In this document: positions 17,936-22,320 of the stretch, one piece after another
Layout of the letters: the number at the start of each line of letters is the position of its first letter
Position numbering within the stretch: the stretch's first letter is position 1
NCBI GenBank assembly: GCA_017961515.1
Contig: JAGCXC010000092.1
Coordinates: forward strand, 15,626-79,625
Direction of reading: 5' to 3'
Length of the DNA stretch: 64,000 nucleotides
Origin: Clostridiales bacterium
GTDB lineage: Bacteria > Bacillota > Clostridia > Acetivibrionales > RGIG10202
Made by a program: the position numbers and the translations under genes
Notes under the pieces: generated by a model
Seen by the model: only the letters and a program-made list of their open reading frames with translations
Databases searched by the model: none
What the model was told of the DNA's origin: nothing

Positions 17936-20900
17936 CTATCTCCTAAATTCCAAACTAGCTCTTTTTCTATTATCAAGCTCTTCTAGATTTATGCGTTCTA
18001 GTTCTCTTCTTCTTCTATCTATTCGTTTCTTATTTTCAAGCTCTGTCCTAGTCTTATATGTATCTCTCACTTTTCTACCTGATTTTGAACCTTTTATCTT
18101 ATTTTTCATTTCAAGTTCCTTTTTTACACTCAGGGCATCAGCTAATACTACAGCAGTTCTACCTTCTACCCAAAGTTCATTATCATTTAGCTCATTGTCA
18201 CTTTTATCATGCTTTAACTTTAATTCCTTTAACTTGATATTTTTAACACATTCAAGCGTCGTTATATCTTCTTTTCGTCCATCTATAACCTTCGCCCACA
18301 CTCCATCAGGTAATGTTACTTTTACACTACCTGTATTGGCATTGAATATGACAACTATTTTATTGAATACATCACCATTTGCATTGTTATTTATTGTGTA
18401 GGCAACCACATTTGGAATATGCATATCAATAAAGGTTATATTTTTTTGTATATCCTCCGCCTTTGTCATTCTAAACGCAGGATGTCCCTTTCTAAGTCTT
18501 ATAAGCCTTTTATAGTAATTATTAACATCTATATATTTAGATTTTCTATACCAGTCAAATTTATTGACTTCATCTCCAGAATTATAACTATTATGTACTC
18601 CACCTTTTGTACGTAGAAATTCTTCTCCTCCATGGATAAACGGAATACCCTGACTTGTCAACACTATAGCCGCACTAAGCTTATCTATTTTTATTCTCTC
18701 CGACTCCATGTCTCCTCCATTGGTACAATTTATCTTATCCCACAATGTCAAGTTGTCGTGAGCTGATACATAGTTTATTGTCTTCACTGGACTATCTACT
18801 TTTGGTGGAATACCAACCTGTGGATGTTTTACAGCTGCCACAATAGATGTTTTTATCAATTCTTCTTTTCCAAAAGCTCCATTTGCAAAACCTGCTTCTC
18901 TTTCTGTAGATTCTGTATTGGCTCCTTTTATAGCATCCCTTAAAGTATCGTTAAATGTACCTATTCTATCTAGCTTCCAAGCATGTTCTCTCCTTGCTTG
19001 GAGCTCATAAGGCAAAGCTGATCCTTCATATCCTGTCCATCCCTCTCCATAGAGTATGACATTTTCCTTAATGGCATCCATTTCCTCTCTTATTTTATTC
19101 ATAAGATTAAAATCATGTAATCCCATAAGATCAAACCTAAACCCATCAATATGATATTCCTTCATCCAATATCTTAATGAATCTCTTATCATTTTCCCTG
19201 TCATTTCTCTCTCTGAGGACGTTTCATTACCACAACCTGACCCATTCGAGAATGTACCATTACTATTTTTTCTATGATAATAACCAGGCACTATCTTATT
19301 AAAATTCGAATCCTCCGTCTTTGCTGTGTGATTATAAACAACATCCATAATAACACCTATACCCTTATCGTGTAATGCCTTAATTGCTTTTTTACACTCC
19401 ATTATCCTTACCTCAGGGATTTCTGCATTGGTAGAATATGAGCCTTCTGGAACATTATAATTTTCTGGATTGTAACCCCAATTATATTTCCCATCATTAA
19501 CTCTTTCATTTACTCCACTAAAATCAAATATAGGCAACAAGTGCACATGCGTTACACCTAACTCTTCTATGTGCGAAAGACCTGTTTTTTCTCCTTCTTT
19601 GCTTTTAGTTCCCTTCTCTGTTAATCCTAAGAACTTACCTTTGTTAACAACTCCCGAATTTTTGTCTATTGTTAAATCTCTCACATGCACTTCATATATT
19701 ATAGCATCTTCAATGTTTTTTAGAACAGGGCCCTTATCCTTATCCCAACCTGAAGGATCTGTATCCTTTAAGTCTACAATTGCTCCCCTTTCTCCATTTA
19801 CGCCTACTGCTTTTGCATATATGTCTACAGCTTCTCTCTCTTTTCCATAATTATTTACTTTGTACGTGTAGAATAACCCCTTCAAATTTCCTTTTATTGT
19901 TTTTTCCCACGTCCCATTTTCAGATGGATCCATTTCTATCTCCTGTATTGCCTCTCCTTCTATTCCATCTGCATACAAACAAATTTTTATACTACTTGCT
20001 GTAGGTGCCCACACTTTAAATTTACTACGTTCCTCTCCATATGTAAGTCCCAAATCTTCTTTATCATAGACATACAAATCCTTAAACTCTTTACTATCAT
20101 ATCTATTTTCTAAAGATACTTGACTTTCTCCATATCCATCCCTTAATAAGGTATACCTTTTTGTAACTAACAATTCATCTTTTGTTAGTATTTCATAAAA
20201 CTTATACCCTATCTGATTAACTCCTTTAATCTCTACCTCTTCTTTTCCATCTTTTACTTTAAAATCGTTAATGGAAACTTCGCCTTCTATTGCGTAATTT
20301 AATACCGCACAAATTCTATTAGATCCATCTATATAGGATTTGAGTATCTTAGGTGACGCATCAACGTCTTCTCTCTTGTACACAATATTTTCCTCATCTT
20401 GTAACAAAAAGACCTCAAGTTCCCCTTTTTCATTAAGCCTAGTTACATCTATATAACGGTTTATATAGATATCCCTTTTCTCCCAATTATTCCTTTTTAT
20501 TATAATTCCTAATTGAGTTAATCCTTCACTCTTTCCTTTATAGAATTCAGCGTACTTACCATAGTCGTCTTCTCCAGTAAAATAGTACTCCCTGCCTTCT
20601 TTTTCAGAGCTTAATCTATCTTTTTCCCACAACCATATATTCCATCCATCATAATCTTTGTTATATCTACTATAATGAATCTTAATTTTTATTTTCTCCA
20701 CTGCCTCTTTTTCAGTAGGTAAAACTCTATCTACGCTGTTTAAATATCGATTTGCATCTTCTTTATTAAAGAAAAACTCTTTCTCATTATCTATAATGTA
20801 AACATTAACATTACTACCTTTTTTGATAGGTATAAACCTATCATCTCCATCTTTTTCTTTCCATCGATTTTCTCCTTGCGCCTTTTTTACTACAAATCCT

Positions 20901-21127
20901 ATTTTTTTTAATCTTCTCGTTTTGCTAAGTGACAAGGTAAGAACCCTACCAAATTCATCTTCCTTTGCATTTTTTTTATCAAATTCAACTTCTCTTGGAG
21001 AAAAGTCTTTGCCAAACTTATCTCTTTCCCATACCCAAAAACTCCAGTCTTTGTAGTCGTTATCTCTTCTCTTATAATGAAAATTAACTGTCACTTTGTC
21101 CTCTGGAAAATTAAGAAAATCTAACAA
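17936..21127 (-). CDS. pulA: type I pullulanase (2x CBM41/PUD-like, CBM48, GH13), cytoplasmic
   Basis: 1063 aa. TTG start with GGGGTG 7 nt upstream. Two HY(K/S)R..DY.GW..W.WE modules, YNWGYNP, GFRFDLMG, YGEGW and YVSAHDN. No signal peptide. A ~70-aa R/K/E-rich C-terminal tail. Confidence 0.9.
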   Translation of the reverse strand: MLDFLNFPEDKVTVNFHYKRRDNDYKDWSFWVWERDKFGKDFSPREVEFDKKNAKEDEFGRVLTLSLSKTRRLKKIGFVVKKAQGENRWKEKDGDDRFIPIKKGSNVNVYIIDNEKEFFFNKEDANRYLNSVDRVLPTEKEAVEKIKIKIHYSRYNKDYDGWNIWLWEKDRLSSEKEGREYYFTGEDDYGKYAEFYKGKSEGLTQLGIIIKRNNWEKRDIYINRYIDVTRLNEKGELEVFLLQDEENIVYKREDVDASPKILKSYIDGSNRICAVLNYAIEGEVSINDFKVKDGKEEVEIKGVNQIGYKFYEILTKDELLVTKRYTLLRDGYGESQVSLENRYDSKEFKDLYVYDKEDLGLTYGEERSKFKVWAPTASSIKICLYADGIEGEAIQEIEMDPSENGTWEKTIKGNLKGLFYTYKVNNYGKEREAVDIYAKAVGVNGERGAIVDLKDTDPSGWDKDKGPVLKNIEDAIIYEVHVRDLTIDKNSGVVNKGKFLGLTEKGTKSKEGEKTGLSHIEELGVTHVHLLPIFDFSGVNERVNDGKYNWGYNPENYNVPEGSYSTNAEIPEVRIMECKKAIKALHDKGIGVIMDVVYNHTAKTEDSNFNKIVPGYYHRKNSNGTFSNGSGCGNETSSEREMTGKMIRDSLRYWMKEYHIDGFRFDLMGLHDFNLMNKIREEMDAIKENVILYGEGWTGYEGSALPYELQARREHAWKLDRIGTFNDTLRDAIKGANTESTEREAGFANGAFGKEELIKTSIVAAVKHPQVGIPPKVDSPVKTINYVSAHDNLTLWDKINCTNGGDMESERIKIDKLSAAIVLTSQGIPFIHGGEEFLRTKGGVHNSYNSGDEVNKFDWYRKSKYIDVNNYYKRLIRLRKGHPAFRMTKAEDIQKNITFIDMHIPNVVAYTINNNANGDVFNKIVVIFNANTGSVKVTLPDGVWAKVIDGRKEDITTLECVKNIKLKELKLKHDKSDNELNDNELWVEGRTAVVLADALSVKKELEMKNKIKGSKSGRKVRDTYKTRTELENKKRIDRRRRELERINLEELDNRKRASLEFRR

Positions 21128-21159
21128 CTTAAATCACCCCTTATGTTATTGATCAAAGT

Positions 21160-21400
21160 ATGACATCCTCCCCTCGTCTACGCTTCAAATTTTTGCCATA
21201 AGCTTTTCCGCATAGAGGTGTGGGCTTCCTTTTGCTGCAACACGCAAACAGTCGGTTCTCGTTCGATAGCACAATTGTGCTAAGCATAAGCGAGCTAACC
21301 CCGTGTGTCCCACGGTTTTGTGCAACCACTACCCAAATATTGACAACACATAACATTGCCATGCATTTTCTTGCAACTCATTCCTTCAACCTCACGATTA
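21160..21400 (-). ncRNA. unclassified structured RNA candidate (5' leader of pulA or an independent sRNA)
   Basis: A locally GC-rich island in AT-rich intergenic DNA. It holds multiple nested hairpins (21301-21315; 21267-21282 inside 21254-21300; 21172-21183 with 21210-21218; 21342-21346 with 21356-21360). Two of these helices need G-U wobbles that exist only in the minus-strand transcript. Boundaries are approximate and no family was recognised. Confidence 0.45.
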
Positions 21401-21831
21401 AGAAAATCCTTACAAAGTTTTTATTTAAAATATACTTTGCGATCAATTTGTTTATAATTGTTCGCGGATTTGCAAAATACTATTTAATTTTAGTAGGATT
21501 TTTTTCTATGCCACCTTGCTCTTATATCACTTACAAACATAAACTCTACTTAGTCTGCAAATCTACTTCCAGGCCAAACTGACACTTATTTGCACAAGCA
21601 AATAATCCATTATCTTCTTACCTAAAATCTTTTTTTCACAAACTCCCGTGCAAAGTATATCACATCACATCTACTAATACAACCCTTATTTAAGTAATTT
21701 TATGTTAAATTACAATTATTTCATGCCATATATGCATTATATCATATATGGTAATTTAAAACCATATATTTTGTATTATTTTGGTTCTAACATAATAAGT
21801 CAAATTATCCTATGAATTGATATATAAAATA

Positions 21832-21860
21832 TTGACAAATATTTAATTTATTGTTATACT
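21832..21860 (+). promoter_or_regulatory. sigma-A promoter of hup
   Basis: TTGACA (21832-21837), 17-nt spacer, TATACT (21855-21860). This implies a leader of about 180 nt before ATG 22045. Confidence 0.7.
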
Positions 21861-22044
21861 GCACTTTAGTAGGTTATTTGGGACAGCCGAACTATATGCT
21901 TGTGACTATATTGATATATTTTTGTATATTAGTGTAGATTTCGCAAGAAACGCTCACTTTTTGTGATATTGCAAATGGTTGAGAGTGGTCCCATAGGTAA
22001 TATATTTTAGATGGAATTTTAAAAAAAATAGGGGGTTATTTTAA

Positions 22045-22320
22045 ATGAACAAAGCAGAATTAGTTAGTGCTATGGCTACAAAATCAGGACTAAGCAAGAA
22101 AGATTGTGAAGCTGCATTAAATGCTCTTGTTGACACAACACAGAGAACTCTAGCTAAGGGTGGCAAAGTTATCTTAGTTGGTTTTGGTACTTTTGAAGTT
22201 AGAAAAAGATCCGAAAGAAGAGGAAGAAATCCTAGAACTGGAGCAGAGATGATTATCCCTGCATCTAAGGTTCCATCATTCAAAGCGGGTAAAAAATTCA
22301 AAGTTTTAGTAAACAAATAA
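22045..22320 (+). CDS. hup: DNA-binding protein HU
   Basis: 91 aa. MNKAELV...GFGTFEVRKRSERRGRNPRTG...PSFKAGK. RBS AGGGGG. Confidence 0.95.
   Translation: MNKAELVSAMATKSGLSKKDCEAALNALVDTTQRTLAKGGKVILVGFGTFEVRKRSERRGRNPRTGAEMIIPASKVPSFKAGKKFKVLVNK

Follow-up and report, generated by a model that had tools for sequence, protein, structure and literature searches.

In AT-rich genomes, stretches of high G+C content between genes serve as predictors of structured RNAs, and one such island lies between pulA, encoding a type I pullulanase, and hup in the 64-kb stretch of Clostridiales DNA analysed here (referred to as the window). The initial annotation of this DNA described the island as a candidate for an unclassified structured RNA, oriented in the same direction as pulA. 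Here we ask which RNA, if any, the island encodes, whether it belongs to pullulanase expression and how it came to reside immediately in front of the gene.

Composition and folding of the island

The island is as GC-rich as had been described. When G+C content was followed in 200-nt windows, the peak of the whole 64 kb was at 21135-21334, with 48% as opposed to a mean of 32.5%, and in 100-nt windows 21150-21349 contained 46-48% G+C with the remainder of the pulA-hup gap at 23-37%. The pairings listed in the initial annotation were also read in the sequence, specifically CCGTG-N5-CACGG at 21301-21315, the 16-nt palindrome TAGCACAATTGTGCTA at 21267-21282, its enclosure by GGTTCTCG and CGAGCTAACC at 21254-21300, and the pairing between 21172-21183 and 21210-21218. 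A further helix, 21342-21346 with 21356-21360, is likewise present in the sequence but is without comparative support. The end of the island was correctly placed, approximately 16-20 nt upstream of the pulA ribosome binding site (RBS).

Single-sequence folding of 291 nt did not differ significantly from that of shuffled sequences on either strand (z = -0.42 and -0.71), and the 164-nt scaffold described below gave z = -0.10. As folding is no better than that of shuffles, the helix density of the island is not significant by itself; it is comparative data that show the helices at 21301-21315 and 21258-21294 to be real RNA helices. The search against Rfam that the initial annotation proposed was performed with release 15 and returned no match at gathering score in the 64 kb and none at E<=10 in the island. 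Neither tRNA nor tmRNA was found in the 64-kb window.

Homology to a non-coding module downstream of tnpB

A single segment of the gap, window 21252-21321, was matched in blastn searches, with 66-68 nt per match and 92-94% identity. The matches are located on the R. albus plasmid pRUMAL01 (NC_014824.1) and on the gut phage contigs MT835784 and MT835477, in each case just 3' of tnpB. On pRUMAL01 the match begins 13 nt past the stop codon of a gene that carries the annotation 'IS200/IS605 family element RNA-guided endonuclease TnpB', and in all three loci a TnpB ORF of ∼373 aa ends just upstream of the match. The three sequences have a terminal GGGGAGGATGTCAC in common and diverge beyond it. The protein encoded upstream of the module contains the Pfam domains HTH_OrfB_IS605, OrfB_IS605 and Cas12f1-like_TNB and aligns over its full length with ISDra2 TnpB (PDB 8BF8, 8EX9 and 8H1J; E=8e-81). 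WP_013483378 from R. albus is a representative TnpB of the family.

Copies of the module were collected with a 25-26-nt pattern, giving 9 viral and at least 120 metagenome stretches. Window 21160-21323 is homologous, on the minus strand, to this non-coding module of ∼100-135 nt, which was found on over 130 contigs from gut, rumen and phages; a core of 64-68 nt is 92-95% identical between the window copy and module copies, and two relatives, L077 and L026, are 88-90% identical to the window copy over 105 nt. Context could be classified for 87 copies among the matches listed. A full tnpB lies directly upstream in 48, a partial or short piece in 15 and none in 24, and in the 48 the module starts ∼15-30 nt past the stop of an intact ISDra2-like tnpB. 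The end of the module is exactly the transposon right end (…GGATGTCAC), conservation stopping right after GTCAC, with 79 distinct 16-nt 3' flanks in the 110 copies listed. Left ends of the family are preceded on the 5' side by a TAM-like TTTA(T), and the predicted TAM is TTTAT.

Position after tnpB and architecture define a TnpB omega-RNA scaffold, and the module is therefore identified as such a scaffold. Its subfamily has no entry in Rfam 15, in which nothing relevant was found for one intact relative or six gene-less relatives of the module, and no Rfam intron match, as sought for the group I intron of an IStron, was obtained in the window or in the same six gene-less relatives. The window island thus belongs to a well-described class, the TnpB omega-RNAs, and is not a new regulatory RNA. 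Of the earlier designation, a structured RNA on the minus strand with no Rfam family stands, whereas neither unclassified nor pulA-specific applies to an IS605-family TnpB omega-RNA scaffold.

Covariance model R1, constructed without the window copy, aligned that copy over 21323-21193 with 88.8 bits (E∼5e-25) and no non-standard pair in the modelled helices. This is the lowest score of the complete copies listed, the others scoring 92.5-138.6 bits as training members, which biases them upward.

Two open reading frames overlap the island, one of 69 aa (21153-21362, minus strand) and one of 120 aa (21220-21582, plus strand), the latter being called as a gene on ENA contigs. That either is a small protein gene is almost certainly incorrect. 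Neither has a Pfam match or a convincing RBS, in agreement with the earlier impression that they look non-protein-like, and elsewhere the homologous module resides in non-coding DNA after tnpB and contains indels that are not multiples of three.

Architecture of the window copy

The window copy and its immediate surroundings consist of the following parts, all on the minus strand.

21160-21323: orphan copy of the omega-RNA scaffold and right end (RE) of an IS605-family TnpB element, ending with GGAUGUCAU at 21160 (blastn, 92-94%; covariance model R1)
21168-21160: terminal GGATGTCA(C/T), common to the family (sequence comparison)
21301-21315: stem 1, CCGUG-GGACA-CACGG (invariant among the copies collected, but within the search pattern)
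21309-21306 and 21165-21162: candidate pseudoknot, loop GACA with UGUC near the 3' end (complementarity, ISDra2 analogy)
21258-21294: stem 2, long hairpin CUCG…UAGCAC-AAUU-GUGCUA…CGAG, holding the 16-nt palindrome (RNAalifold)
21231-21248: stem 3, UUUGC-GUGUUGCA-GCAAA (closest-subfamily comparison)
21172-21218: terminal (subterminal RE) hairpin, degraded, CCUCUAUGC, a 26-nt AU-rich loop (21209-21184) and GCGUA-GAC-GAGG
21324-21397: left GC-rich part of the island (tnpB 3' ends, left ends and gene-less relatives gave no significant match)
21144-21159: the 16 nt directly 3' of the RE, ACUUUGAUCAAUAACA, would-be guide by position

Stem 2 provides the covariation that the initial annotation had suggested looking for in relatives, in this case within the TnpB-element family. 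RNAalifold, applied to the 81 distinct copies listed, recovered 12 pairs, 7 of which have changed on both sides with pairing kept. G-U wobbles in stem 2 of the related copies occur in the tnpB sense only, confirming the minus strand, the sense of pulA, as the strand of the RNA. Stem 3 reads UUCGC/GCGAA (L075, L116) or CUUGC/GCAAG (L086, L018) in the closest subfamily and the helix is kept in the window through two-sided changes.

The pseudoknot between GACA and UGUC is a candidate, proposed from complementarity and from analogy with ISDra2. Both strands are present in the window copy, UGUC at positions -6 to -3. In the 81 copies listed UGU is invariant and the C is present in at least 90%, while GACA belongs to the search pattern and is constant for that reason; with so little change in either strand, covariation is absent.

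The terminal hairpin is the damaged part of the scaffold. In L100 and L074 it reads CCUCUAUGC-GCCA-GCAUAGG with a loop of 4 nt, relative to which the window loop is ∼22 nt longer. The window hairpin folds with -14.4 kcal/mol and z = -0.39, and the whole window scaffold with z = -0.10, compared with z = -1.5 to -4.5 for the whole scaffolds of intact copies. Nevertheless, the damage does not prove that guide-RNA function is lost, as L013, L045 and L124 have an intact tnpB yet no terminal hairpin at all. The right-end sequence GGATGTCAT stops at 21160, and ACUUUGAUCAAUAACA (21144-21159) would, by its position, act as the guide in the event of scaffold processing to an omega-RNA. Stem 1, stem 2, stem 3, terminal hairpin and the 3' tail GGAUGUCAU are all present, the window copy thereby keeping the whole non-coding scaffold.

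The reference TnpB omega-RNA (reRNA) is reportedly that of ISDra2 from Deinococcus radiodurans, described by Karvelis in 2021. The functional scaffold of the ISDra2 omega-RNA has a length of 116 nt and is clear of the essential part of the tnpB ORF; it comprises four stems and one pseudoknot, formed between nucleotides -5 to -3 and nucleotides -103 to -105 (cryo-EM structure, PMC10097598). The module resembles it in its location in intact relatives, where it fills the interval from the tnpB stop to the right end and is followed by a variable flank (guide), in its several stems and candidate pseudoknot between the 5' hairpin loop and the 3' tail, and in the full-length ISDra2 TnpB homologue with which it is associated. 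It differs in that the subfamily lies outside Rfam 15, in that binding to TnpB and processing are putative for it, and in that the window copy is without tnpB, tnpA and left end and has a degraded terminal hairpin.

Probable loss of the remainder of the element

No tblastn match to tnpB or tnpA was obtained in the 64-kb window and none is called in the ∼8 kb past its left edge. nhmmer detected neither a left end in the gap or window, using the family left-end profile, nor a tnpB remnant in 21324-21480, using a profile of tnpB 3' ends. Permissive blastn of 21324-21480 had a best E=0.078, and E=0.95 within 21324-21397, and Smith-Waterman comparison of 21324-21480 with 41 candidate sequences gave a best score equal to the shuffle mean. 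The best alignment of 21324-21397 is collinear with the last tnpB codons and is not significant; this part may be a decayed tnpB 3' tail. By eye, CVVNI…VVVA recalls the TnpB C-terminus AAVNI…LVVA, and GAGGTTGAAGGAATGAGTTGC recalls the left-end AAGGTGGGAGATGAATTGCG; as the similarity searches were null, neither resemblance is claimed.

The island is a gene-less, 5'-truncated IS200/IS605 remnant of an element with a TnpB of the ISDra2-like clade. An omega-RNA gene is expected to lie directly downstream of, or to overlap, a tnpB 3' end, and the window copy does neither; with no tnpB adjoining, it is filed as an orphan remnant and not as a working omega-RNA gene. On its own, the remnant would neither move nor guide cleavage, given that the 64 kb and ∼8 kb of flank contain no cognate TnpB and that the search for a left end was negative.

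Gene-less IS200/IS605 derivatives which carry omega-RNAs have been described as palindrome-associated transposable elements, PATEs (Meers et al. 2023, PMC10055086). The window copy is similarly a gene-less derivative retaining the omega-RNA region and, at ∼240-300 nt, the island is of a size typical of such elements. Miniature derivatives also exist in the family itself, one type (L046, L047, L089, L113, L125) having a left end and 33 tnpB codons fused to the scaffold and another gene-less group having 120 nt upstream of the scaffold in common and at least two different 3' flanks. These parallels would suit a mini-element that is still mobilisable, having both ends and being excised and re-inserted by TnpA from elsewhere. 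We nevertheless consider this very unlikely. A PATE has two ends and can be mobilised in trans, whereas here the right end is present and the left end undetected by the nhmmer profile, the left 74 nt are unlike the left end of any relative, and the subterminal RE hairpin, needed for recognition by Y1 transposase, is degraded. Furthermore, a single scaffold copy exists in the window and the same-species loci fetched (distinct sequence, ∼72 kb). ERZ27256983 k141_3642578 and ERZ28653446 scaffold_260 are contigs of this organism. Because no left end is detectable, the copy is better termed a solo right end or truncated relic than a PATE.

The pulA leader and its orthologues

Three features define the context in which the remnant resides, again on the minus strand.

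17936-21127: pulA, type I pullulanase, 1063 aa from a TTG start (ORF, translation, Pfam)
21134-21142: pulA RBS AAGGGGUGA, 6 nt ahead of the TTG start at 21127 (sequence)
21654-21682: predicted pulA promoter, conserved (block aligns with the regions upstream of pulA in L007, L008 and L010)

An identical pulA product contains the Pfam domains PUD, CBM_48, Alpha-amylase and pulA_all-beta. The block at 21654-21682 probably works as the pulA promoter, judging from a -35 TTGTAT (21682-21677), a 17-nt spacer and an extended -10 TGTGA-TATACT (hexamer 21659-21654). Its position implies a pulA 5' UTR of ∼520 nt with the island inside.

Orthologous leaders were gathered by protein search and contig look-ups; a scan of the genome collection with pulA yielded one locus only, 32% identical. 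The four closest orthologues, L007-L010, are 57-69% identical, with L007 at 69%, and promoter and RBS are kept, AAGGGGTGA of the latter in all four, with the island absent: neither the covariance model nor blastn produced a match in any of the four leaders. The L007 leader aligns collinearly to window 21683-21467 and then directly to 21157-21133, without intervening sequence, 24 of 25 positions being identical over 21133-21157, and the sequence from 21157 on is thus ancestral leader. In L007, L008 and L010, the three in which the promoter could be located, leaders are 90-180 nt long. The left boundary of the insertion lies somewhere at ∼21397-21466. Absence from the four closest pulA leaders indicates that the island is an insertion, not a conserved regulatory leader.

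These observations bear directly on the reading, following from the initial annotation, of the island as an RNA belonging to pulA. A new RNA dedicated to pullulanase control, either a small RNA or a cis-acting regulator such as a riboswitch-like leader, would be consistent with the sense orientation of the island in the pulA 5' UTR and with its being outside any Rfam family. In addition, in the minimum free energy structure CACCUCUAUG, which belongs to the terminal hairpin, is base-paired to the pulA Shine-Dalgarno region, from which one might speculate that CACCUCU of this hairpin sequesters the Shine-Dalgarno sequence, a fold without statistical or comparative support, the leader having a z of -0.42, no better than shuffles. 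Such an RNA is highly improbable and contradicted by the comparative data, as all four of the closest orthologues lack the module in their leaders and as it occurs at over 130 sites, with 79 distinct flanks, either next to tnpB, as in dozens of unrelated contigs, or in other unrelated contexts.

Origin and possible function of the remnant

Taken together, the island is most probably the right end of an IS605-family element, orphaned and partly decayed, with an omega-RNA scaffold in the pulA 5' UTR, and is carried as a passenger. An IS605-family element would have entered the pulA leader after the split from the L007-L010 lineages, presumably by TnpA-catalysed single-strand 'peel-and-paste' transposition, so that its right end came to adjoin sequence ∼16 nt upstream of the pulA Shine-Dalgarno. 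Left end and tnpB would have been lost later, by deletion or decay. The conserved pulA promoter probably drives passive transcription of the scaffold, which is sense-oriented in the ∼520-nt 5' UTR and would have no present function, being a likely neutral passenger.

The condition of the scaffold could be read differently. Its core, stems 1-3 and the pseudoknot strands, is essentially intact while a possible tnpB is unrecognisable, which might be a sign of selection acting on the RNA and not of simple deletion. The island might then be a functional orphan omega-RNA, expressed from its own or the pulA promoter and guided by the 16-20 nt past 21160; a TnpB or nuclease-dead TldR-type protein encoded elsewhere would bind and process it in trans. 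This would be in keeping with the natural elements in which an intact tnpB is accompanied by a scaffold lacking the terminal hairpin, with the frequency of gene-less copies (24/87 of those listed) and with PATE elements, which often encode omega-RNAs needing use in trans (PMC10055086). The island is also identical in all same-species contigs covering it, from four samples, although identity within one species is uninformative with respect to selection. We regard a functional orphan as unlikely, given that tnpB is absent from the 64 kb and ∼8 kb of flank, that the would-be guide is the element's own flank with no TAM-like TTTA(T) beside it, and that the copy combines the lowest covariance model score of the complete copies listed with a weakened terminal hairpin. 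Less likely again, and deserving little credence, is that selection has kept the scaffold core and that the pulA leader doubles as an orphan omega-RNA source for a TnpB- or TldR-type protein elsewhere. If true, binding or processing of the leader by such a protein could couple pullulanase expression to a transposon-derived system.

TldRs are TnpB-like nuclease-dead repressors, the guide RNAs of which are encoded beside tldR and target another locus. The window copy resembles TldR guide RNAs, and exapted TnpB-Cas12f regulators, in having an omega-RNA-type scaffold outside an active transposon and, in principle, promoter-proximal targeting; this is a resemblance only, and in contrast to TldR guide RNAs no TnpB-family gene is near the window copy and the would-be guide is local flank.

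As a passenger, the remnant is a further case in which an IS605-family element, within the 5' UTR of a gene, has been eroded down to its guide-RNA module. It illustrates that a GC-rich island in an AT-rich genome can be a solo transposon right end instead of a host regulatory RNA. An abundant omega-RNA subfamily, with more than 130 copies and no Rfam model, will continue to be flagged by pipelines as 'unknown structured RNA', a gap which alignment A1 and model R1 would fill. The lack of tnpB in more than a quarter of the classifiable copies listed bears on the persistence of omega-RNAs without their nuclease.

Cas12 crRNA repeats have been proposed to descend from omega-RNA 3' ends. The terminal hairpin and tail of one intact relative, L011, align with CRISPR-DR9 (RF01322) with 24.9 bits and E=0.003, below the gathering score of 45; in contrast to a CRISPR repeat, the hairpin is present as a single copy and not in an array, and the window copy is unmatched. 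The L011 alignment fits the proposed descent of Cas12 crRNA repeats.

A GC-rich island matching a TnpB-adjacent right end

The intergenic DNA between pulA and hup contains the island in which the initial annotation had seen an unclassified structured RNA. The features of this region are as follows.

17936-21127, minus strand: pulA
21160-21323, minus strand: omega-RNA-like scaffold
21682-21677 (-35) and 21659-21654 (-10), minus strand: putative pulA promoter
22045-22320, plus strand: hup

In 100-nt windows, GC content within the gap peaks at 46-48% between 21150 and 21349 versus 17-37% elsewhere in the gap, and in 200-nt windows 21135-21334 is the maximum of the entire 64 kb (0.48 versus a mean of 0.325), bearing out the GC-rich island. 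The helices originally listed are all readable in the sequence. Helix density alone, which had been taken as a sign of an RNA, is not evidence for one, because folding energy is unremarkable compared with shuffled sequences, for both 291 nt (z = -0.42 and -0.71 on the minus and plus strands, respectively) and the 164-nt core (z = -0.10). Rfam 15 gave no match at the gathering score in the window and none at E<=10 in the island, in agreement with the absence of a known family in the initial reading, and ARAGORN detected no tRNA or tmRNA in the window. That the island encodes a small protein has no support, neither of its two ORFs having a Pfam match, as anticipated from their non-protein-like appearance.

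When the gap was compared by blastn with plasmid and phage records, only 21252-21321 matched, with hits of 66-68 nt at 92-94% identity in Ruminococcus albus 7 plasmid pRUMAL01 and two human-gut phage contigs. A ~373-aa TnpB ORF ends shortly upstream of the match in all three loci, and in pRUMAL01 the match starts 13 nt past the stop of a gene annotated 'IS200/IS605 family element RNA-guided endonuclease TnpB'. The R. albus protein contains the Pfam domains HTH_OrfB_IS605, OrfB_IS605 and Cas12f1-like_TNB and aligns over its whole length with the ISDra2 TnpB structures 8BF8, 8EX9 and 8H1J (E=8e-81). Conservation among the three loci extends to a common …GGGGAGGATGTCAC, beyond which divergence is complete; the window has the same terminus, …GAGGGGAGGATGTCAT, finishing at 21160, exactly where the island had been proposed to start. 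The island is thus homologous to a TnpB-adjacent module up to an exact right-end boundary, and we regard it as almost certain that it represents an IS605-family right end with an omega-RNA scaffold.

A mobile family of omega-RNA modules

A search pattern of 25-26 nt from the conserved core, within which stem 1 and GACA lie, matched 9 stretches in viral contigs and at least 120 in metagenome contigs; with the three BLAST hits the family comprises at least 134 copies, the window copy excluded. Among the matches listed, 87 copies had enough upstream sequence to be classified, the scaffold being preceded by a full tnpB (product sharing 41-100% identity with that of R. albus) in 48, a partial tnpB in 7, a short tnpB piece only in 8 and no tnpB in 24. 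Y1 (HUH) tnpA is also present in some tnpB-bearing elements. The module is mobile, since 79 different 16-nt 3' flanks occur among 110 copies (matches listed), and where the left end is recognisable the 5' flank ends in TAM-like TTTA(T). Repeats typically break assemblies, and many metagenomic copies are, as expected, situated at contig ends. A same-species Logan contig (L003, 1-36) breaks within the scaffold, the model matching positions 1-36 at the contig end.

For 81 distinct aligned copies, which do not include the window copy, RNAalifold gives stem 1 (CCGUG/CACGG) and a stem 2 of 12 bp. The former is invariant but belonged to the search pattern; in the latter, seven pairs have changes on both sides that preserve pairing. 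G-U wobbles are numerous and occur in the tnpB sense only, confirming the strand of the minus-strand RNA, in the pulA sense, that had been proposed. A third hairpin covaries in the closest subfamily (L077, L026, L075, L116, L086 and L018; UUCGC/GCGAA versus CUUGC/GCAAG) and reads UUUGC/GCAAA in the window, and a fourth, terminal hairpin, CCCCCACC…GGUGGGGG, lies ahead of the tail GGAUGUCAC; it is absent from some intact-tnpB elements (L013, L045, L124). Thus the description as a structured RNA outside Rfam stands, supported by family covariation, but the RNA is no longer unclassified, its identity being that of a TnpB omega-RNA right end.

The functional ISDra2 omega-RNA scaffold, 116 nt long, folds into four stems and has a pseudoknot formed by nucleotides -5 to -3 with -103 to -105; the 5' part overlapping the tnpB ORF is dispensable (PMC10097598). 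Similarly, the family module is non-coding, ~100-135 nt long and situated in the interval from the tnpB stop codon to the right end, with a candidate pseudoknot between the stem-1 loop GACA and UGUC at -6 to -3. This pairing is proposed by analogy rather than covariation, because UGUC is nearly fixed in the alignment and GACA belonged to the search pattern. The terminal hairpin and tail of one intact omega-RNA (L011, 4086-4121) give a sub-threshold alignment with the Rfam CRISPR repeat family CRISPR-DR9 (24.9 bits, E=0.003; gathering score 45), which fits the idea that Cas12 crRNA repeats descend from omega-RNA 3' ends.

The window copy is an incomplete element

The window copy scores 88.8 bits (E~5e-25) with the covariance model built from this alignment, has no non-standard pair in the modelled helices and is the sole match across the window, same-species contigs and orthologous pulA loci. 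This is the lowest score among complete copies, the others, at 92.5-138.6 bits, being training members. The model forces the 3' end to 21193; comparison with relatives L100 and L074 gives a better alignment, with the true scaffold end at 21160. The terminal hairpin is CCUCUAUGC-(26-nt AU-rich loop)-GCGUA-GAC-GAGGGGAGGAUGUCAU in the window and CCUCUAUGC-GCCA-GCAUAGGCGGUGGGAGUAUGUCAC in these relatives, and is weak in the window (-14.4 kcal/mol, z = -0.39) because the loop is ~22 nt longer. The whole scaffold is no more stable than shuffled sequences, versus z = -1.5 to -4.5 in intact relatives. All same-species contigs covering the island, from four samples, carry it without any difference. One same-species contig from another sample (L001, 5667-5682) has a tandem duplication of 16 nt, CATATATGCATTATAT, at 21727, in the AT-rich stretch ahead of the pulA promoter; this is the sole polymorphism in the 950-nt gap.

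No other recognisable part of the element is present. Three TnpB and four TnpA proteins gave no tblastn match in the window, nhmmer with the family left-end profile gave none, and ~8 kb past the left edge of the window, on a same-species contig, contains housekeeping genes only. The 74 nt left of the scaffold (21324-21397) are still ~44% GC and match neither tnpB 3' ends, left ends nor upstream parts of gene-less relatives. Their best local alignment is collinear with the last tnpB codons at a score exactly equal to the shuffle mean, so that they could, at most, be a decayed tnpB tail. The missing left end and degradation of the subterminal hairpin argue against a mobilisable PATE, a gene-less palindrome-associated derivative retaining both ends. 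The scaffold derives from, and would work like, a TnpB omega-RNA, but it lacks the defining adjacency to tnpB and the copy is therefore filed as an orphan remnant of the family rather than a working member.

A 19-nt direct repeat on the minus strand (21397-21416 and 21110-21127) surrounds the island and RBS, with TTGTAAGGATTTTCTTAAT adjoining the island on its left and TTGTTA-GATTTTCTTAAT forming the pulA start. Its alignment score was reached in 3 of 2000 shuffles and by a single segment among 1408 others in the window; the repeat could be a trace of left-junction formation, or chance.

A probable insertion in the leader of pulA

Contigs were identified for the four closest PulA proteins, which are 57-69% identical (L007-L010). 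An RBS block, AAGGGGTGA, is common to the window and all four upstream regions, and a promoter block, TTGT-N17-(TGTGn)TATACT, to the window, L007, L008 and L010; in these three relatives the leaders measure just ~90-180 nt. Window 21683-21467 and then 21157-21133 (24/25) have collinear counterparts in L007, the DNA between them having none, and the weak alignments of L009 and L010 reach ~21398. These alignment limits define an inserted block of 21158-21397 at minimum and ~21158-21466 at maximum, within a predicted ~520-nt 5' UTR in the pulA sense. On this comparison the island appears to be an insertion into the pulA leader. A regulatory RNA specific to pulA is contradicted by the comparative data, the island being absent from the four closest orthologous leaders.

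We infer that an IS605-family element entered the ancestral leader through TnpA-mediated single-strand transposition, its right end coming to abut leader DNA 16 nt ahead of the Shine-Dalgarno sequence; tnpB and the left end would later have been deleted or decayed, and the remnant may now be passively transcribed along with pulA. The island is probably a non-functional passenger. That it acts in trans as a functional orphan guide RNA is improbable, even with an intact scaffold core, the abundance of gene-less copies in the family and the remark by Meers et al. (PMC10055086) that PATEs often encode omega-RNAs that have to act in trans. If the scaffold were processed to an omega-RNA, the guide would be ACUUUGAUCAAUAACA (21159-21144), merely local flank, beside which there is no TAM-like motif. 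The omega-RNA class, its right-end position and gene-less derivatives are already established; new are an abundant omega-RNA sequence subfamily with no Rfam model and an apparent omega-RNA relic located in the leader of a pullulanase gene from an uncultured low-GC bacterium.

Gene order across 17936-22320 agrees with L007 and L008 as far as the pulA promoter, where synteny ends. A ComEA-like SLBB/HHH gene and a DEAD-box helicase, downstream of pulA, are conserved, whereas the upstream position is taken by a radical-SAM gene in these relatives and by divergently transcribed hup in the window. The PulA C-terminus (17936-18200) is a highly charged Lys/Arg/Glu-rich tail, …KNKIKGSKSGRKVRDTYKTRTELENKKRIDRRRRELERINLEELDNRKRASLEFRR, and the closest homologues align over only 94-95% of the query.

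Variant elements in the family

Gene-less copies L023, L033, L043, L065, L072 (1295), L109, L112 and L140 have ~120 nt in common ahead of the scaffold, among them an extended -10-like TGGTATAAT, and the 3' flank of L140 differs from the rest. The group resembles a mobile derivative of the PATE type, which may have its own promoter for the omega-RNA. Another conserved upstream segment, …GATAAGGGATT…CCCGTAACCAGTCGGGATGTAAAATGTGCAAAGTCAGTTTTGCGGACA…, characterises gene-less L049, L106, L114, L131 (two copies) and L134; no Rfam family was found there at the gathering score, and hence no sign of a group I intron or IStron. Internally deleted mini-elements are of two kinds. L046, L047, L089, L113 and L125 have the left end and first 33 tnpB codons directly ahead of the scaffold, the left-end motif preceding it by ~310-325 nt, and L055, L123 and L141 have the last 46 tnpB codons only, the motif preceding the scaffold by ~715 nt. 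Viral contig L015 carries two tandem scaffolds, 11571-11692 and 11762-11864, with 70 nt between them.
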